Part shown: positions 5,058-64,000 of the stretch, one piece after another
Layout: each line of letters opens with the position of its first letter
Position numbering within the stretch: the stretch's first letter is position 1
Assembly: GCA_030603395.1 (NCBI GenBank)
Contig: JAUVXX010000003.1
Coordinates: 30,645-94,644 of the forward strand
Direction of reading: 5' to 3'
DNA from: a bacterium
GTDB taxonomy: Bacteria; Patescibacteriota; Minisyncoccia; Minisyncoccales; CG1-02-41-26
Length of the DNA stretch: 64,000 nucleotides
Notes under the pieces: generated by a model
Seen by the model: the letters and a program-made list of their open reading frames with translations, nothing else
Told to the model about the DNA's origin: nothing
Databases searched by the model: none
Position numbers and translations under genes: made by a program

Positions 5058-6533
5058 ATGGTTGAAATAATTGAAGGAAAAAGCCGTTTCTCTCCCATAG
5101 AAATTCTGGCTTACATATCTATTTTTGCTCTTTTGTTTTTGGCTATCTTTCTTTTTATCAGAGGAATCAGGGCCGAAACAAGAGATCGGGAGCGAACGGA
5201 GGAAATCGGAATTTTACAAGAAGCTCTCAAAGATTATTATGAAGAAAACGGGAAATATCCCATAGCTGAGGAGTGGGAGTGTTTGGAAGACAAAAGTTAT
5301 TTTCCTGAAATTCCCAAAGACCCTTTTTACGATCCAGCCAATCCTATTTTTTGCTACCATTACAAAAGTGCTAAGCAAGGAAGAGAATATAAGCTTTACG
5401 CAACGTTGGAGAAAGAAAAGAAAATTTATCAAGTTTTCTCTGAAGGGGGAGAGGGGATTTTCACTGGAGAATCAGGAGAGGGTTCCTGGTACAACTCGGA
5501 TTGGAAATTCAGGAAGAAAATAACAATTCTCAGCAAGAAGGTGGCCGGTATTTTAGAAAATTTTCCGGTACTGATTCATCTAAAAGATAAAGACCTTAAA
5601 GAAAGAGCAAAAGCAGCCGGAGTAGATATTTTGTTTACCGGTTCTGATGGAGAAACTTTATTGGAAAGTGAAATAGAGAAATATGACTCTGAAACCGGTG
5701 AACTTATCGCCTGGGTTAAAGTTCCTTCTCTCTTTAGTGCAAGGGATACAGAGATCTATCTCTATTATGGCTCTAAAAAGAGAGCTCAGGTCAATGAAAA
5801 AGAGGTCTGGGATGAGAATTTCTTGTTGGTTCATCATTTTAAGGAAGCTGCTTCAAGTACGAGAGATGCTACTTCAAAAAACAATGAGGGAATCCCCGAA
5901 GGGGAATTGACTCAAGGAGTTGAAGGAAAGATATTTAAGGGAATCAGTTTTGGGGGCAGAGACGGCTTCATCAATCTGGGCAATAAGGAGAGTTTTTGGG
6001 CCACCGGGACTTTAACCTTTCAGGTTTGGGTTTATCCTGAAGGGGAAGAACAGGAGAATAAGATTTTAGGGCTTGAAGGAGCAGAATATCAAGAAAGGGG
6101 AATTTTCGGTTGGCAGGGGACTCAACGTGGGCCCTGGCAGGTGGTAACCTCTCTCTCTGAAACTTTCTTTGGGAGGGGCTTTCAAGAAGTTGTTTCCGAT
6201 GAGCCCCTGAAATTGAATCAATGGAATTTTGTGGCTGGGGTGTTTGGAGAAGACCAGATGACCTTATTTATTAATGGAGAGGAAACATCACAGAAAGTGA
6301 GATACGGAGGAAAATTTTCAAGGGAAAAGGTGGAGTTTGCTGAAATCGGAAGATATTACCGAGGACTCTCAATCTATCAGGACAAAGTTTGGAAAAGCTA
6401 TGCTTTTTCCGGGATTTTAGATGAATTTCGGATTTCTCAGGTTGCCAGGTCCTTGGCCTGGCTGGAAACTTCTTTTCAAAATCAAAAAGACCCTCCAGGT
6501 TTCATTAAAGTGGACGAAGAAGAGTTATATTAA
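5058..6533 (+). CDS. Pilin-like (GspG-type N-terminus) protein with DUF2341-like and LamG/concanavalin-like domains
   Basis: The N-terminus FSPIEILAYISIFALLF has the pilin Glu5 hydrophobic helix. It is followed by LQEALKDYYEENGKYP, a T2SS-G-like stretch. The WYNSDWKFRKKITI...FPVLIHL block resembles DUF2341, and the C-terminal half looks LamG-like. Confidence 0.55.
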   Translation: MVEIIEGKSRFSPIEILAYISIFALLFLAIFLFIRGIRAETRDRERTEEIGILQEALKDYYEENGKYPIAEEWECLEDKSYFPEIPKDPFYDPANPIFCYHYKSAKQGREYKLYATLEKEKKIYQVFSEGGEGIFTGESGEGSWYNSDWKFRKKITILSKKVAGILENFPVLIHLKDKDLKERAKAAGVDILFTGSDGETLLESEIEKYDSETGELIAWVKVPSLFSARDTEIYLYYGSKKRAQVNEKEVWDENFLLVHHFKEAASSTRDATSKNNEGIPEGELTQGVEGKIFKGISFGGRDGFINLGNKESFWATGTLTFQVWVYPEGEEQENKILGLEGAEYQERGIFGWQGTQRGPWQVVTSLSETFFGRGFQEVVSDEPLKLNQWNFVAGVFGEDQMTLFINGEETSQKVRYGGKFSREKVEFAEIGRYYRGLSIYQDKVWKSYAFSGILDEFRISQVARSLAWLETSFQNQKDPPGFIKVDEEELY

Positions 6534-6535
6534 TC

Positions 6536-7006
6536 ATGATTTTACCCATCAAAAAATACCCAGACCCCTTTTTGAAGCTGAAAGCAGAAAGAGTTAAAGA
6601 AATAGGAGATGAAGAAAGAGAATTGATAAAGAATATGCTCCAGACCATGTACCGCAATAAGGGAGTTGGCTTGGCGGCTAACCAGGTAGGGATTTTGAAA
6701 AGAATCATTGTGGTTGATGTTGGCAAAGGTCCCCAGGTTTTTATCAATCCAGAGATTTTAGAAAGAAAAGGAGGCAAAGAAATTTCAGAGGAAGGATGTT
6801 TGAGTGTGTCCGGAGTTTTTTTAAAGATTAAAAGATGGAAAGAAATAAAAGTCAGAGCCAAAGATGAAAGAAGTCAGGAGTTTGAGCTCCAAGCCAGCGG
6901 TCTTCCATCCTTTTGCTTACAGCAAGAAATAGACCACTTGAATGGCTTGTCAATTTTGGATAGAATGAGTTTCTGGCAAAAATTATGGCAAAAAATAAAA
7001 AAATAA
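6536..7006 (+). CDS. def: Peptide deformylase with a variant metal-binding motif (QEIDH instead of HEIDH)
   Basis: GVGLAANQVG and EGCLSV motifs are present. Motif 3 reads LQQEIDHLNG (codons cag caa gaa ata gac cac). Confidence 0.85.
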   Translation: MILPIKKYPDPFLKLKAERVKEIGDEERELIKNMLQTMYRNKGVGLAANQVGILKRIIVVDVGKGPQVFINPEILERKGGKEISEEGCLSVSGVFLKIKRWKEIKVRAKDERSQEFELQASGLPSFCLQQEIDHLNGLSILDRMSFWQKLWQKIKK

Positions 7007-55638: not shown

Positions 55639-56130
55639 ATGGTTAAAACTAAAAAAACAACTAAGAAAAAAACCAAACTAGCCAAAAAAAAGGTAGAAAA
55701 AAAGGTAAAGAAAATTCCCGAGAAGAAAGTAGAGAAAAAGGCAAAATATTTTGAAGCAGTAGGCAGGCGGAAGACAGCTACGGCTAGAGTTCGGCTTTTT
55801 ACCCAGGGAGAGAAGGGGATGACCGTAAACAATAAATCCTACAAAGTTTATTTTCCCATATTCTCTTTGCAAAAAACCGTGAAAGAAGCTTTGGAGGAGA
55901 TAAAATGGCAGGATAAGTTTAGAATTTCAGTTGTCGTCAAGGGGGGAGGTTTAAGTGGCCAGGCCGAAGCCATTCGTCACGGCATTGCCAGAGCCCTGGT
56001 TGTCCTTAATCCTGATTTTAGGAAGAGATTGAGAAAACTCGGTTTTCTTACCCGCGACCCCCGCATGAGAGAGAGGAAGAAATTTGGCTTAAAACGTGCC
56101 CGCCGTGGCCCCCAGTGGTCAAAACGATAA
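55639..56130 (+). CDS. rpsI: Ribosomal protein S9 (Lys-rich N-terminal extension)
   Basis: AVGRRKTATARVRLF...GGGLSGQAEAIRHGIARAL...KKFGLKRARR. Confidence 0.95.
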   Translation: MVKTKKTTKKKTKLAKKKVEKKVKKIPEKKVEKKAKYFEAVGRRKTATARVRLFTQGEKGMTVNNKSYKVYFPIFSLQKTVKEALEEIKWQDKFRISVVVKGGGLSGQAEAIRHGIARALVVLNPDFRKRLRKLGFLTRDPRMRERKKFGLKRARRGPQWSKR

Positions 56131-56148
56131 AGTAGCACTCCGCAGACA

Positions 56149-56180
56149 CCCGCCAGTTCTAAATGAACTGGCGGGTTTTT
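56149..56180 (+). terminator. Rho-independent terminator ending the ribosomal operon
   Basis: 11-bp perfect stem cccgccagttc/gaactggcggg with a 5-nt loop and a T5 run. Confidence 0.8.
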
Positions 56181-59938: not shown

Positions 59939-61327
59939 ATGGAGTTACAATTAATCAACATTTCATCCGCATACGAATCGGAGACGAACCCCCGTGATAA
60001 AAAGGACTTCGAGGGCCCGGCCTTCGATGACCTGGTGGCGAGCATAAAAGAGAAAGGAGTGATAGTGCCGGTGCTGGCTCGTAGGAGAAAAAAAGACGCA
60101 AAGGAATTTGAGATTATCGTAGGATCGAGAAGATTAAAAGCGGCCAGAGTTGCTGGACTTTTGGATATCCCAGCGAAGATCGTGGAGATGGGTGATGTGG
60201 AGGCGAGGGAGGTGCAGATTATCGAGAACCTGCAACGCAAGGATGTCCACCCCTTAGACGAGGGTTTTGGTTATCGACAGCTAATAGAGAAATCAGATTA
60301 TGACGTAGAGAACCTCGCAATCAAAGTGGGCAAACCCCAGGGCTATATCCGCCAGCGTCTATTCCTGACGAACCTGACCGAGAGACCGGCCAACGCCTAC
60401 CGCAAAGGAGAGATTGCTGACGGACACGCCGTTCTTGTCGCCAGGCTCTCTCCACTTGATCAGTCCAATGCAATGAGATACCTGAGAGACTCATTCTCTT
60501 TGCCATCAGTCAAACAGTTCAAGGAATGGATTGAAGAAGAGTTTTATCATCCGCTTGCTTTCCAGCCATGGCTCAAAGACAAAGAAGCTAATAAGGCAGT
60601 CGGAAAATGTATTGAATGCTCGCCGAACTTAAACACTTTATTTGGTGAAGTCAAAGAAGGATCATGCACCGATCTGAAATGCTGGAAGAGAAAGATGGGG
60701 AGATACATACTTCACCAGATCGCCAAGTCCAGAAAGCAGGGAGTCGAATTGTTAAAAGTGAGCAAGGAGTATGGTTCAGCTGGACCCGAGATTCTTTCAG
60801 CCAATGCTTACACATCGGTCAGCTTCAAGAAAAAAGACCGGTGCAAATATGCCCAGAAGGCGATAGTGGCTGCAGGATCAGACTTGGGAACGTTCCTGTG
60901 GGTCTGTATCAGTTCCGAATGTCCTAAGCATCAGGTTGACCATGGCGATTATACTCCAACCCCGAAGGAAAAAGAGCGGAGGAGAAAAGAAATAAAGGAA
61001 CAAAAGACCAAGAGAGAGAAGGAAGAGAAAAGAATTGTGGAATCCCTGGAAAAAGTCAAGTGGCCGCTTACCGGGAAGAACTTAGACATCATATTTGAGA
61101 TAGTTTTGAACGAGCAGGGAACCACCGTACTCAGACCGGTAGCCAAGAGGTTTAAGATATCGCCAAAGAAAAAAACAAGATGCGGCTCCACTTATTATGA
61201 TTGGGAGGATTCCATTCGGGAGGCGTCAGAGGGAATGGACAATGCTGAAAAGCTGAGGTTCATCATCGGGATTTTACTCGAGAGAACGTGGGGCGATTTG
61301 AAGAACAAGATACTGAAAATGTTCTAA
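59939..61327 (+). CDS. ParB/Srx-fold N-terminal domain protein with Cys-rich middle region and charged C-terminus
   Basis: VPVLARRR...FEIIVGSRRLKAARVAGL...IENLQRKDVHPLDEG is a ParB-box (GxRRxxAA) domain. Cys clusters follow: CIECSP...CTDLKC and CKYAQ...CISSECPKH. Confidence 0.7.
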   Translation: MELQLINISSAYESETNPRDKKDFEGPAFDDLVASIKEKGVIVPVLARRRKKDAKEFEIIVGSRRLKAARVAGLLDIPAKIVEMGDVEAREVQIIENLQRKDVHPLDEGFGYRQLIEKSDYDVENLAIKVGKPQGYIRQRLFLTNLTERPANAYRKGEIADGHAVLVARLSPLDQSNAMRYLRDSFSLPSVKQFKEWIEEEFYHPLAFQPWLKDKEANKAVGKCIECSPNLNTLFGEVKEGSCTDLKCWKRKMGRYILHQIAKSRKQGVELLKVSKEYGSAGPEILSANAYTSVSFKKKDRCKYAQKAIVAAGSDLGTFLWVCISSECPKHQVDHGDYTPTPKEKERRRKEIKEQKTKREKEEKRIVESLEKVKWPLTGKNLDIIFEIVLNEQGTTVLRPVAKRFKISPKKKTRCGSTYYDWEDSIREASEGMDNAEKLRFIIGILLERTWGDLKNKILKMF

Positions 61328-61343
61328 CGAAGAAGAAGAGATA

Positions 61344-61353
61344 AAAGGTCGAA
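61344..61353 (+). promoter_or_regulatory. AAAGGYCGR motif copy (aaaggtcgaa)
   Basis: 37 nt upstream of the ATG at 61381. Confidence 0.45.
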
Positions 61354-61380
61354 AAAGATAATTCACAAACAAAAGTAATC

Positions 61381-61713
61381 ATGGAAAAAGATCAGGAATT
61401 GTTGGAGGCAATTCTAAAAGCAATCGTCTATAAACCAGAAGAAGTGAAGGTTGAGAGAAAGGTAGATGAGATGGGAGTGTTACTCTCAGTAAAGCTCGGA
61501 GAAGGAGATGCCGGTCCCGTAATCGGAAAGGAAGGAGGAACCATCCAAGCCATCCGAACCGTGATGAGAGTGGTAGGAGCGAAGGGCAAAGCCAGAATTA
61601 CCATCAAGTTAGAAGTTCCAGAAAAAAAGCCATCCTTCACAGCTCCACCACTCACCAGTCCACCCGCTGGCCAGAAGAAAGAGAAGGGAGATCTGGAAGA
61701 CCTGAAGCTTTAA
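61381..61713 (+). CDS. KH-domain RNA-binding protein (KhpA/YlqC-like) with Pro-rich C-terminal extension
   Basis: LLEAILKAIVYKPEEVKV...GPVIGKEGGTIQAIRTVMRVV (GxxG loop)...RITIKLEV. Confidence 0.7.
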   Translation: MEKDQELLEAILKAIVYKPEEVKVERKVDEMGVLLSVKLGEGDAGPVIGKEGGTIQAIRTVMRVVGAKGKARITIKLEVPEKKPSFTAPPLTSPPAGQKKEKGDLEDLKL

Positions 61714-61763
61714 TCAGAAATTCAGATTGAAGATTATTTTGAAGATTCTCCCTGGCCGCTTCG

Positions 61764-61790
61764 GAAACGGTCGATTCCTCTCGACCTTTC
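61764..61790 (+). repeat. Palindrome built from the motif and its complement (gaaacggtcga-ttcctc-tcgacctttc)
   Basis: Read directly. Contains the reverse-complement copy ctcgaccttt at 61780-61789. Confidence 0.5.
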
Positions 61791-61851
61791 AAAAATAAAC
61801 AAGGAGGAAAATAACGAGGCGGCCCGGGGAATCGAAAACAAAAAAAGAACC

Positions 61852-61861
61852 AAAGGTCGAG
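61852..61861 (+). promoter_or_regulatory. AAAGGYCGR motif copy (aaaggtcgag)
   Basis: 39 nt upstream of the ATG at 61891. Confidence 0.45.
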
Positions 61862-61890
61862 TTAAATTCTTAACCATCAAACACAAAACA

Positions 61891-62013
61891 ATGAAAAAAG
61901 AAGAAAAAGAAGAAATAAAAGATTGTCCAAAATGTGGCGGAGAAAGGGGAAGAAAGCTAATAGGAGATGAAAGTTATGATTGGTGTGATGAGTGTGGTGT
62001 GGTTGAAAATTAA
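61891..62013 (+). CDS. 40-aa zinc-ribbon peptide
   Basis: Own translation: MKKEEKEEIKDCPKCGGERGRKLIGDESYDWCDECGVVEN (CxxC...CxxC). Confidence 0.45.
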   Translation: MKKEEKEEIKDCPKCGGERGRKLIGDESYDWCDECGVVEN

Positions 62014-62026
62014 CAAAACAAAAACA

Positions 62027-62164
62027 ATGCCAATAAATAAATTAGTCGGCGAAGAAGAGGGCGGCGAAGAGGAAGGCGGAGAAGAAAAGGAAGAGAAAGA
62101 GGGCGGAGAAGAGAAGGAAGAGAAGGAAGGAGGCGAAGAGAAAGAAGAAGAGGAAGAGGTATAA
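62027..62164 (+). CDS. 45-aa poly-Glu/Gly acidic repeat peptide
   Basis: MPINKLVGEEEGGEEEGGEEKEEKEGGEEKEEKEGGEEKEEEEEV. It is encoded by a ~115-nt purine-rich stretch (almost all G/A, with a few C in ggcgg units), so coding status is uncertain. Confidence 0.35.
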   Translation: MPINKLVGEEEGGEEEGGEEKEEKEGGEEKEEKEGGEEKEEEEEV

Positions 62165-62170
62165 AGATTA

Positions 62171-62287
62171 GGCGGGCTCTGGTTAGAAAAGCCAGAGGAA
62201 ATATCGGGAAGGGTTTTTATAACTTACCCCTCATTTGTCCGCAGACAATTCCCCGTTCCCGAGGGTCTGGTCTGTGCCCGCCGAACC
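62171..62287 (+). ncRNA. Candidate structured RNA domain directly upstream of the tRNA-like element
   Basis: ggcgggc (62171-62177) pairs perfectly with gcccgcc (62276-62282). Enclosed hairpins are ctctgg/ccagag, gaagggt/acccctc and ttgtc-cgca-gacaa. Confidence 0.3.
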
Positions 62288-62368
62288 GGGGCGGTAGTTG
62301 AGTAGGAACAACGTAGATCGATACATAAGGTCCTATCTAAGGCGCAGGTTCGAATCCTGCCCGCTCCA
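62288..62368 (+). ncRNA. tRNA-like element with alanine-identity acceptor stem and aberrant 16-nt 'anticodon' loop
   Basis: Manual fold. Acceptor ggggcgg/ccgctcc includes G3:U70, with discriminator A. D-arm gttg-agtaggaa-caac; T-arm gcagg-ttcgaat-cctgc; 4-nt variable region. The anticodon stem tagat/atcta encloses cgatacataaggtcct. No U33 or anticodon register can be placed, and cta rather than cca follows. Confidence 0.55.
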
Positions 62369-62370
62369 CT

Positions 62371-62865
62371 ATGTGTGCACCAGTACCAAAAGGCAGATGG
62401 GCTTGGAAATACGACAAGTGCATTATCTGTGATACCAGGAAGATAAGGCATAAAGGCCGGGGACTTTGCGTTCATTGCTGGGACAGGAGGAGGGGCCAGA
62501 ACCCGAGGAGAAAAGAACGACAGAAAAGAAGGCACGAGAAGTTTTATTTAAAAGTCAAGGGAACTCCAGAATACAGAGAATCTTGCCGATTAAAAGTAAA
62601 GAGATGGAGAGAAGATGAAAACTCAGGGTATAAATTGTTTCTTCAAAAAGTATATTTAAGAAATAAATTCAAAAGATTCCTAAACAGAAAGAGACCCCTA
62701 AAGAGAGATCTGGGCGGAGTTAAAATCAGGTGCGAAGGCTGCGAGAAAGAGTGCTTGATCACGACACCAATTAAACCCGGGAAGCTCAATGGAAAGATAC
62801 AGGAGCTTCAATTATTTAAAAAAGTATTGATAGAAAATTGCGGGCAAAATCCCACTAAGAAATAA
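62371..62865 (+). CDS. Basic Cys-rich (zinc-finger-like) protein
   Basis: CIICD...CVHC and CEGCEKEC motifs, very Arg/Lys-rich. The ATG begins 2 nt after the tRNA-like element. Confidence 0.5.
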   Translation: MCAPVPKGRWAWKYDKCIICDTRKIRHKGRGLCVHCWDRRRGQNPRRKERQKRRHEKFYLKVKGTPEYRESCRLKVKRWREDENSGYKLFLQKVYLRNKFKRFLNRKRPLKRDLGGVKIRCEGCEKECLITTPIKPGKLNGKIQELQLFKKVLIENCGQNPTKK

Positions 62866-62870
62866 AAATT

Positions 62871-62880
62871 AAAGGTTAAG
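62871..62880 (+). promoter_or_regulatory. Degenerate motif copy (aaaggttaag)
   Basis: 24 nt upstream of the ATG at 62895. Confidence 0.3.
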
Positions 62881-62894
62881 CGCTGGAATTAAAG

Positions 62895-64000
62895 ATGGAT
62901 ATTATAAAAAAATTTGAAGAGACCAAGGAAATTGTAGGAAAGGCAGATCGTCGCCTCAGTTCTATGATCAAAGGGCTTCAGGAGTTGCAGGACACCCACC
63001 GGGAGAAACTGGAGCAGGTTTTAGAAGCCTCACGGATATCGCAGTTCAACGAAGAAGAGTTAAAGAATTTTCTGAAAGAACCCTATGTGATTCTACCCAC
63101 CAAGAGGCCAGATGAGTGGTGGGTGGTGGTCCCGAAGTTCATCCAGATGCAGGTCGGTTGGCTGGAAAGAAGCACCGAGTCCTACAACATTTTCAAGGTC
63201 AACAAGTTTATCAACTGGTTCGGGGACATTCCTGCCTTGCTAAAAGATAAGTTCAAATTCAAGCCAGAGCTGCCGGTGAAGGTCTACGACGGAATGGTGC
63301 TGACAGGGAAACGATATCAAGATGAAACCTGGAACAGATACAGCAGATTCCTTTCCAGGAGAGAAGGCGAAGACAGGATCAGAATTAAGAGAGGAGCGGA
63401 GTTCAGGCTGATCGCACAGATAATTGACGATGGCACTTTGCCGTTCTTGCCAAAAGAAGTTGAGAAAGGGGATCTACGGCCGGCCCAAGTAAAGTTCAAG
63501 TTGAGAGAGTATCAAGAGGAAGCCCGGCAGATGTTTCTAAAATACGGAGCAATAGGAGTTTATTGGGCCTACTCGGCAGGCAAAACCTATTTAGGACTTG
63601 ATCTCTGTTCTGAATTAAAGGGAGATAAACTGATCGTAGTGCCGACTTTAACCTTGAAAGAGCAATGGGAAAAGAGATTGAGCGAACTGACTGAAGTTGC
63701 CAACGAGGTAGACGTAATAACTTATCATAGCTTTGAGAAAGTAAGAAAGAATGAATATGTTTTGGCGATCTATGACGAGTGCCATCACTTGCCAGCCAAT
63801 ACATTTTCAAGATTGTCAACCATCAGGGCCAAATATAGATTAGGGCTTTCAGCTACACCTTACAGGGAAGACGGCCGAACAGATTATATCTTCGCATTAA
63901 CGGGATTCCCGGTAGGACTGAACTGGGAGGCCCTGATAAAGTTGGGAGTGATTGAGAAGCCAGATATTCGGCTTTACATCTTACAGGATAGTAGAGCCAA
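62895..64000 (+). CDS. SF2 DEAH-box helicase, XPB/Rad25-like, with an uncharacterised ~190-aa N-terminal domain (3' end outside the window)
   Basis: Own translation: MDIIKKFEETKEIVGKADRR...LREYQEEARQMF...VYWAYSAGKTYLG (Walker A)...AIYDECHHLPAN (DEAH/DECH)...LGLSATPYRED (motif III). It is absent from the ORF track because it is open at the window edge. Confidence 0.75.
   Translation, partial: MDIIKKFEETKEIVGKADRRLSSMIKGLQELQDTHREKLEQVLEASRISQFNEEELKNFLKEPYVILPTKRPDEWWVVVPKFIQMQVGWLERSTESYNIFKVNKFINWFGDIPALLKDKFKFKPELPVKVYDGMVLTGKRYQDETWNRYSRFLSRREGEDRIRIKRGAEFRLIAQIIDDGTLPFLPKEVEKGDLRPAQVKFKLREYQEEARQMFLKYGAIGVYWAYSAGKTYLGLDLCSELKGDKLIVVPTLTLKEQWEKRLSELTEVANEVDVITYHSFEKVRKNEYVLAIYDECHHLPANTFSRLSTIRAKYRLGLSATPYREDGRTDYIFALTGFPVGLNWEALIKLGVIEKPDIRLYILQDSRA

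Follow-up and report, generated by a model that had tools for sequence, protein, structure and literature searches.

A tRNA-like RNA with alanine identity and no anticodon in a Patescibacteriota prophage, a candidate RNA-processing element

The DNA considered here is a stretch of 64,000 nucleotides (nt) from a bacterial contig (GenBank JAUVXX010000003.1, positions 30,645 to 94,644; assembly GCA_030603395.1; Patescibacteriota), referred to below as the window. It joins a chromosomal block of ribosomal protein genes to a prophage. Located 6 kb inside the prophage, within the replication module and on the same strand as every flanking gene, is an 81-nt RNA that folds as a tRNA but has no usable anticodon, and which we tentatively interpret as a phage-encoded RNA-processing element. 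The element and its parts are listed here, numbered from the first nucleotide of the window.

62288 to 62368, + strand: tRNA-like RNA of 81 nt, a cloverleaf with G3:U70 (62290/62365), A73 (62368) and no encoded CCA, detected by Rfam (tRNA) and ARAGORN
62288-62294 paired with 62361-62367, + strand: acceptor stem GGGGCGG/CCGCTCC, 7 pairs, with G3 (62290) opposite U70 (62365)
62297-62312, + strand: D arm GTTG-AGTAGGAA-CAAC, read from the sequence
62314-62318 paired with 62335-62339, + strand: anticodon-like stem TAGAT/ATCTA of 5 bp, enclosing the 16-nt loop CGATACATAAGGTCCT (62319-62334)
62314 to 62339, + strand: the entire remodelled anticodon arm, delimited by sequence reading, the Rfam match, RNAalifold and an enumeration of excisions

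The Rfam tRNA model (RF00005) matched positions 62288-62368 with a score of 54.9 bits (E = 4.4e-09; gathering score 29), aligning all 71 model positions and placing a 15-nt insertion in the anticodon loop. A preliminary description of this DNA had proposed a cloverleaf with a 7-bp acceptor, a D arm containing GG, a canonical T loop and a 4-nt variable region, and both this score and a rereading of the arms bear it out. In addition to the stems listed above, the RNA has the variable region AGGC (4 nt), the T arm GCAGG-TTCGAAT-CCTGC, G18 and G19 in the D arm, the pair G15:C48 and, as read from the sequence, U8, A9 and G26. The proposed alanine marks were likewise found in place. The G3:U70 pair that serves as identity element for alanyl-tRNA synthetase (AlaRS) is formed by G62290 and T62365, and it stands within the full E. 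coli-type alanine set of G1:C72, G2:C71, G3:U70, G4:C69 and A73. Downstream of A73 (62368) there is only CT before the ATG at 62371; the earlier reading of CTA followed by ATG had counted the A of the start codon twice, although the closeness of that codon stands.

A single true homologue was identified, at positions 5886-5967 of a related phage locus, L182, which was found via its neighbouring KH protein and thus independently of the RNA. The homologue is 82 nt long, scores 48.8 bits against the Rfam model, and keeps all 21 base pairs, G3:U70 and an enlarged loop (18 nt, GACGATACATGAGGTCCC); its discriminator is G73. Nine alignment columns differ between the two RNAs, eight of them unpaired, and the ninth changes G6:C67 to G6:U67. 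Changes were therefore present in 1/42 paired columns and 8/41 unpaired columns (Fisher p 0.013), and at the background nucleotide divergence of about 14%, the probability of finding one change or none among 42 columns is 0.014. Because the paired columns were spared relative to the unpaired ones, the stems are under constraint. The anticodon-like loop differs by two substitutions and a 2-nt indel, which is about the background rate, and a constrained loop motif is not evident. RNAalifold recovered the cloverleaf from the window and L182 sequences together. The preliminary description had made its proposal depend on conservation of the fold in related sequences, and L182 retains all four stems. 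A pairing between the D loop and the anticodon loop (TAGGA/TCCTA), present in the minimum-free-energy (MFE) fold of the window element, was discarded after inspection by eye indicated its absence in L182.

The loop closed by the anticodon-like stem sets the RNA apart from decoding tRNAs, whose anticodon loop has 7 nt, among them U33 and a purine at position 37; the loop measures 16 nt in the window and 18 nt in L182. All single contiguous excisions that leave a 7-nt loop were enumerated for both RNAs and U33 resulted from none, in agreement with the earlier claim that no 7-nt register, even with an intron, supplies this nucleotide. A possible 3-bp extension of the stem (GAU/GUC) would leave the heptaloop ACAUAAG, with C at position 33. 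Folded in isolation, the arm gains no stability over shuffled sequence. ARAGORN reported the window element (62288-62369) as tRNA-Cys (ACA) "at position 36" and the L182 homologue as "tRNA-??? (ac)". As the assigned anticodon differs between homologues, there is no stable anticodon, and the Cys (ACA) call is a forced one that puts an anticodon inside an oversized loop. Of the programs proposed for checking the element, Rfam and ARAGORN returned a tRNA fold, a forced anticodon and no transfer-messenger RNA (tmRNA). By its fold the element is a member of the tRNA family; by its loop it is not a decoder.

It is nevertheless conceivable, though highly improbable, that the RNA decodes after all, either because some unknown process takes out the insert or because the loop presents the heptamer A-U-AAG-G-U (A-U-GAG-G-U in L182). 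This heptamer resembles the loop of tRNA-Leu(NAG), with G36-G37, and an alanine-charged tRNA presenting it would read CUY codons. AUAAGGU and AUGAGGU are the only 7-nt windows with U33 and R37, and the A/G difference between them falls on the would-be wobble base, where AAG and GAG are both Leu CUN anticodons of one codon box. However, a 16-nt loop offers 10 windows with a probability of 1/8 each, so that chance alone should supply about one heptamer of this kind, and the flanking 6 to 8 nt on the 5′ side and three nt on the 3′ side are unable to pair in a way that would display it. Removal of the insert meets the result of the excision enumeration; moreover, a group I intron would not fit into the region, for which Rfam gave no intron match, and we know of no bacterial mechanism that removes inserts of about 9 nt.

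Membership in other RNA classes was also considered. The tmRNA covariance model (RF00023) scored 32.7 bits, below its gathering score of 47, with a match covering the acceptor and T arm only; the permuted tmRNA model scored 13.6 bits, and ARAGORN reported no tmRNA in the window. The 16-nt loop is too small for a tag open reading frame (ORF) and resume codon, and on reading, the structured domain upstream of the element contains no tag-like frame. The tmRNA identity was rejected on the subthreshold score and the missing tag frame. YrlA (RF02553) was rejected with 13.8 bits against a gathering score of 69 (E = 9.9). An intron-containing tRNA was rejected as well, given an insert of 9 to 11 nt, no match to an Rfam intron, no excision that restores a standard loop and a bacterial host.

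The position of the element within a prophage follows from the surrounding genes. A block of bacterial chromosomal genes (infA-rpmJ-rpsM-rpsK-rpsD-rpoA-rplQ...rplM-rpsI) ends at 56130, beyond which the G+C content climbs from about 0.39 to about 0.45. From 56.2 kb on, each ORF with a match belongs to a phage DNA-metabolism family: PD-(D/E)XK exonuclease, replication initiator, topoisomerase-like protein, ParB, KhpA/B-type KH protein and SF2 helicase. A single NCBI contig holds the records of both the ribosomal and the phage proteins. The relatives of the phage KH protein are mostly named Parcubacteria, Paceibacterota or Patescibacteria, which makes a CPR bacterium the probable host. Between 56110 and 61886, the window is 85 to 87% identical at the nucleotide level to L182, a free-phage-like contig. 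The homology begins in the last rpsI codons and, at the prophage junction (56111-56180), continues through the rpsI terminator hairpin; in L182, this rpsI 3′ end adjoins a tyrosine integrase. The start of the homology in the last rpsI codons and the adjoining integrase indicate that the phage integrates at the 3′ end of rpsI (about 56111-56130), which is, on this sequence comparison, the phage attachment site.

These observations bear on another proposal of the preliminary description, that the tRNA-like RNA is a decayed tRNA-Ala left at the attachment site of a mobile element. tRNA genes are the integration targets of many integrative elements, and such a remnant would be unsurprising on general grounds. 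Yet the junction lies at the rpsI 3′ end, with an equal rpsI end beside the integrase in L182, and the tRNA-like RNA is 6 kb internal, flanked on both sides by genes common to free phage contigs. The partial duplicate of the 3′ half that was expected at an attachment site was searched for in the window, with up to 3 mismatches, and only the element itself was found. The proposal is refuted, and we give the attachment-site origin next to no credence.

Like the element, the host tRNA-Pro and tRNA-Asp genes do not encode CCA; the host must therefore be able both to mature tRNA 3′ ends with an endonuclease and to add CCA. The tRNA-Asp(GTC) gene (726-801, - strand) was detected by ARAGORN and not reported by the Rfam tRNA model at its gathering threshold; its T loop reads TCGAGGT.

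A second structured noncoding element is present at 61744-61840 (+ strand), directly downstream of the KhpA/B-like KH gene, with a long-range helix of about 17 bp (GAUUCUCCCUGGCCGCUU / AGGCGGCCCGGGGAAUC). The region 61700-61886 is 94% identical in L182 and 76 to 80% identical in seven other phage loci, each time right after the KH gene, and RNAalifold predicted 22 pairs, 4 of which have compensatory changes. This element may be an RNA partner of the KH protein.

The immediate neighbours of the tRNA-like RNA are as follows.

62027 to 62164, + strand: acidic Glu/Gly-rich ORF of 45 aa, with its stop 6 nt ahead of the structured domain; also present in L182
62171 to 62282, + strand: structured domain of 112 nt, a 7-bp closing helix (GGCGGGC/GCCCGCC) around three hairpin arms
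62283 to 62287, + strand: linker GAACC of 5 nt between the upstream helix and G1, with a predicted RNase P cut after 62287
62371 to 62865, + strand: ORF164, zinc-finger-like, with its ATG 2 nt past A73 and no Shine-Dalgarno (SD) sequence
62895 to 64000, + strand: XPB/ERCC3-like SF2 helicase, extending past the window end and used as the anchor for finding related phages

The closed multi-hairpin domain of the preliminary description holds up in part. Its perfect helix and three hairpins are present, with an MFE of -47.3 kcal/mol (z -4.14) that was equalled by 0/200 shuffles, but its inner part is not conserved in L182. The reverse strand of 62171-62282 is nearly as stable (-43.6 kcal/mol, z -3.2). 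Rfam searches of the domain at the gathering threshold and at E <= 10 returned no family, and blastn against the INPHARED phages matched the T arm alone. In L182, the 112-nt domain is replaced by a single 8-bp GC-rich hairpin (GGGGTTGG/CCAACCCC; -14.6 kcal/mol, z -2.4). Although the upstream elements differ in sequence and size, the position of a strong closing helix is common to both phages, and the GC-rich helix ends exactly 5 nt before G1 in each, with the linker GAACC in the window and AACCC in L182. The acidic ORF has a counterpart in L182 (5687-5845, 52 aa) that begins and ends alike and differs in length by frame-keeping indels. The acidic ORF, strong helix, 5-nt linker and tRNA-like RNA make up what appears, from these two phages, to be a conserved cassette.

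The acidic protein itself (MPINKLVGEEEGG...EEEEV) has no PHROG match and may be a DNA-mimic-type protein; the purine-rich repeats within its ORF constitute family D1 of a repeat search. Downstream of the tRNA-like RNA, ORF164 begins MCAP(V/I)P.., a start that L175 (6331) and P0002/L004 share; neither of these loci has a tRNA upstream, and an SD is missing in relatives too. The L175 homologue starts MCAPIPEGKWAWKY..., so that ATG 62371 is the true start of ORF164. Ahead of the L175 homologue is an AT-rich spacer without a tRNA or SD. In L175, an ordinary tRNA-Phe(GAA) (6898-6970) abuts the 3′ end of the ORF164 homologue, whereas the tRNA-like RNA of the window abuts the 5′ end; tRNA-type genes thus seem to be located at a module junction.

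The evidence assembled above fits a cis-acting processing element, itself probably chargeable, better than the chargeable decoy or primer, or the regulatory RNA, of the preliminary description. On the analogy with known tRNA-like processing signals, we put the probability that the main role of the RNA is that of a tRNA-derived, phage-encoded, nondecoding RNA-processing (excision) element at about 40%. All features read by tRNA-processing and charging enzymes are intact, namely the 7-bp acceptor with G1-G4, G3:U70, A73, the D arm and the T arm. As for position, the RNA follows an ORF stop by 6 nt and a structured spacer and precedes an ATG by 2 nt, with no predicted promoter or terminator. Since neither promoter-like sites nor a + strand terminator were predicted in 61300-63000, the RNA is most simply part of a long + strand early transcript. 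We infer cleavage, CCA addition and alanylation because RNase P, RNase Z, the CCA-adding enzyme and AlaRS read the acceptor/T-arm half of their substrates and ignore the anticodon.

The proposed sequence of events would be as follows. The tRNA-like RNA would be transcribed within a polycistronic early mRNA, and host RNase P would cut at G1 (62288), leaving the upstream mRNA for the acidic protein with a 3′ end composed of a very stable closed helix and a 5-nt tail. That helix should shield the message from 3′ exonucleases. RNase Z would cut after A73, as expected from host tRNA genes that also lack an encoded CCA, and in this phage the ORF164 message would keep a 2-nt leader before its SD-less AUG. 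The freed 81-nt RNA would receive CCA and would probably be charged with alanine by AlaRS while taking no part in decoding; charging could be an ancestral property that has persisted, or it could be an additional function.

Several observations weigh against a processing role. Every cleavage step in this scheme is a predicted one. With one homologue, there are no compensatory changes within the window/L182 lineage. The coupling to a start codon is not conserved, as the next ORF of L182 starts about 95 nt downstream. An ordinary tRNA is an equally good cutting signal, so the processing model leaves the remodelled anticodon arm and the kept G3:U70 pair unexplained. Nor is a hairpin within 8 nt upstream a general companion of such RNAs: it was found for 5/28 enlarged-loop tRNA-likes and 20/143 ordinary tRNAs (p 0.39), and a rule to that effect was rejected. 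Finally, 15 loci from related phages do not have the tRNA-like RNA. Eight of them were reached through helicase homologues (75 to 88% identity, on phage contigs of about 40 kb); they have nuclease, SSB, ParB, KH and helicase modules in common, in shuffled order, and contain neither a match to 62028-62368 nor a tRNA-like RNA there. The other seven are KH-linked, L182 being the one KH-linked locus that carries the element. The route through ORF164 provided no further conservation, as the sole relative, P0002/L004, and the L175 homologue have no tRNA upstream.

This patchy distribution is also what a broken phage tRNA gene would produce, that is, a gene with a 9- to 11-nt insertion in the anticodon loop drifting without function. 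The related phages carry ordinary tRNAs instead (Phe in L175; Tyr and Thr in L183 and L189), the loop is changing between homologues, and deposited phage annotations hold both "tRNA-OTHER" and pseudo-tRNA calls. We nevertheless consider a broken gene unlikely. The enlarged loop is older than the split of phages that are about 14% apart in DNA, 41/42 stem positions are identical in both RNAs and the remaining one still pairs (p about 0.013), and the universal tertiary nucleotides are intact. In another phage family, moreover, anticodon-less tRNA-likes show the compensatory changes that point to selection.

That family emerged when DNA patterns of the acceptor stem and T arm, both exact and gapped, were run over viral, metagenome and genome contigs. 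Viral contigs yielded many phage tRNA-likes of 77 to 90 nt with the surplus length in the anticodon loop, which are unrelated or distantly similar to the window element. A first scan of metagenome contigs was empty and a second returned L164 and L165, GC-rich, with A3:U70, and probably unrelated; among genome contigs, the single match was a Chryseobacterium prophage. A tRNA-Ala-like family of Bacteroidota phages could be assembled from these matches (L128, L133, L138, L140, L141, L070, L150 and L077, together with the Chryseobacterium lathyri prophage, L163). Its members are 80 to 84 nt long, with invariant GGGG/CUCC-A, a 4-nt variable region, no encoded CCA and an anticodon arm with a 15- to 19-nt A-rich loop, and they are sited in phage early modules or tRNA arrays. 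Two scans without any acceptor constraint recovered six members (L128, L133, L138, L070, L140 and L141), all with GGGG...CUCC-A. In a 10-sequence alignment of the family, the cloverleaf was paired in 93.8% of cells and nine pairs change on both sides; G3:U70 is invariant, pairs 5:68, 6:67 and 7:66 covary, and the weakest of the helices is the anticodon stem. The window element and L133 share an identical segment, CTAAGGCGCAGGTTCGAATCCTGC. Host phylum, D arm and loop sequence differ between the family and the window element, and the loop likeness GAT.ACAT.AA could be due to chance. The overall likeness may reflect either common descent or convergence.

Three further groups of tRNA-likes were observed in these and related searches. 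In viral contigs L120, L137, L110, L112, L119, L090 and L096, several of them phage contigs of 250 to 530 kb, GGGG..CUCCA tRNA-likes have an extended helix in place of the anticodon loop, capped by UUCG or GAAA (e.g., CCCTTCGGGG and AACCGAAAGGTT). L164 (6341-6418) and L165 (5314-5391), from GC-rich phage, encode a 78-nt tRNA-like with A3:U70 and an 11-nt loop, followed by CTA as the window element is; judged from the ORFs, the tRNA-like lies between two tail/structural-module genes, and ARAGORN reported tRNA-Tyr(ata) at position 38. L007 (12295-12531, - strand), L010, L013, L040, L047 and L048 encode an 82-nt tRNA-like with G3:U70 and a 15-nt loop, located, by eye, between a candidate small-terminase ORF and a large-terminase-like ORF; ARAGORN reported tRNA-Thr, and a predicted Zn-ribbon ORF reads through the tRNA-like.

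The Bacteroidota-phage family lends some weight to a different account of the window element, in which it is a trans-acting, alanine-charged, nondecoding tRNA-like made for the phage's own purpose, with its operon location serving merely as the mode of expression. It could, for instance, act as decoy or competitor towards AlaRS, EF-Tu or host defences that target tRNAs, interfere with ribosome rescue as an RNA resembling the tmRNA tRNA-like domain, or donate alanine for nonribosomal transfer. We regard this account as possible, if rather unlikely. In its favour are the full alanine set of the window element and the G3:U70 pair of L182, as well as a G3:U70 that is invariant across the 10 Bacteroidota-phage sequences while neighbouring pairs covary, and the uniform GGGG...CUCC-A of the six members found without an acceptor constraint. 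The many phage GGGG..CUCCA tRNA-likes with a UUCG- or GAAA-capped helix for an anticodon loop are consistent with it too. Among by-catch enlarged-loop tRNA-likes, G3:U70 was present in 2/5, compared to 15/193 ordinary tRNAs from the same loci, a surplus that is suggestive and not decisive. However, the sole true homologue has G73, the loop diverges at roughly the background rate with no motif demonstrably constrained, and other enlarged-loop phage tRNA-likes are without alanine identity (L164/L165 with A3:U70, the Arthrobacter "tRNA-OTHER" and Bacillus phage 0305phi8-36). No SmpB, Fem-type transferase or reverse transcriptase gene is nearby, and the tmRNA results described above (a score of 32.7 against 47 bits, no tag ORF and no ARAGORN tmRNA) also count against it. 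It is more doubtful still that the window element and the Bacteroidota-phage family together represent an unrecognised class of alanine-accepting phage RNAs in which the anticodon is deliberately absent and which act in trans once charged. Such RNAs may compete with tmRNA or tRNA-Ala at stalled ribosomes, blunt tRNA-directed defences, or donate alanine outside translation.

The presence of tRNA genes in phages is commonly attributed to codon supply or to evasion of anticodon nucleases, and a conserved nondecoding cloverleaf fits neither explanation. If the element is a processing signal, the punctuation of mRNAs by tRNAs would extend from organelles and eukaryotic long noncoding RNAs to phages of ultra-small bacteria, and transcript ends in uncultured phages could then be predicted in a simple way. 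If its alanine identity is selected, as the invariant G3:U70 of the Bacteroidota-phage family suggests, phages would make charged tRNA mimics with a nondecoding job, for which tmRNA is the only well-understood bacterial precedent. In either case, the present labels of such genes (tRNA-Cys, tRNA-Val, tRNA-OTHER or pseudo, depending on the tool) are misleading. In the literature on phage tRNA-likes with alanine identity or an enlarged or remodelled anticodon arm, we found no description of such an element.

Among known systems, the tRNA-like domain of tmRNA shares with the window element a GGGG...CUCCA acceptor, G3:U70, a T arm and the absence of an anticodon. tmRNA is charged by AlaRS, and charging of the window element is predicted. 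mRNA-less tmRNAs exist in jakobid mitochondria. The window element differs from tmRNA by its canonical 4-bp D arm and its anticodon-like stem, and it has no tag frame or pseudoknots. In the MALAT1 and MEN-beta (mascRNA) system, RNase P forms the 3′ end of the upstream RNA, and completion of the small RNA falls to RNase Z and the CCA-adding enzyme. As in the window, a stabilising structure directly precedes a tRNA-like that has no functional anticodon. The mascRNA system belongs to eukaryotes and uses a triple helix for protection, whereas the window element has a GC-rich stem and G3:U70. Aminoacylation is not known for mascRNA.

Closer to the window element in biological setting are phage genes annotated as "tRNA-OTHER," pseudo-tRNA or "intron-containing tRNA-like," which likewise combine normal acceptor, D and T arms with an oversized anticodon loop or arm. 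Examples are gene 99 of Arthrobacter phage MidnightRain ("tRNA-OTHER") and a misc_feature of Bacillus phage 0305phi8-36 ("tRNA-like element"), both without G3:U70. These annotations propose no role, and their sequence relation to the window element is confined to the T arm. The tRNA-like structures at the 3′ ends of plant RNA viruses are recognised by host tRNA enzymes and are chargeable without decoding (PMC4810235). They differ from the window element in terminating RNA genomes, in their pseudoknotted acceptor and in their Val, His or Tyr specificity (PMC4810235). The most similar system in its proposed mode of action is that of the plant mitochondrial t-elements, which set the 5′ and 3′ ends of mRNAs through RNase Z and RNase P (PMC1920247). 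Like the window element, t-elements are noncanonical cloverleafs with a well-kept T arm, and they are situated in a longer transcript beside protein genes, as is predicted for the window element (PMC1920247). Their ends coincide with the 3′ or 5′ ends of mRNAs and the excised piece can receive nontemplated C or CCA, as would be the case for the window element (PMC1920247). The latter, whose cleavage is predicted, differs in belonging to a phage rather than an organelle, in its far better kept cloverleaf, in its alanine set and in the helix that lies 5 nt upstream.

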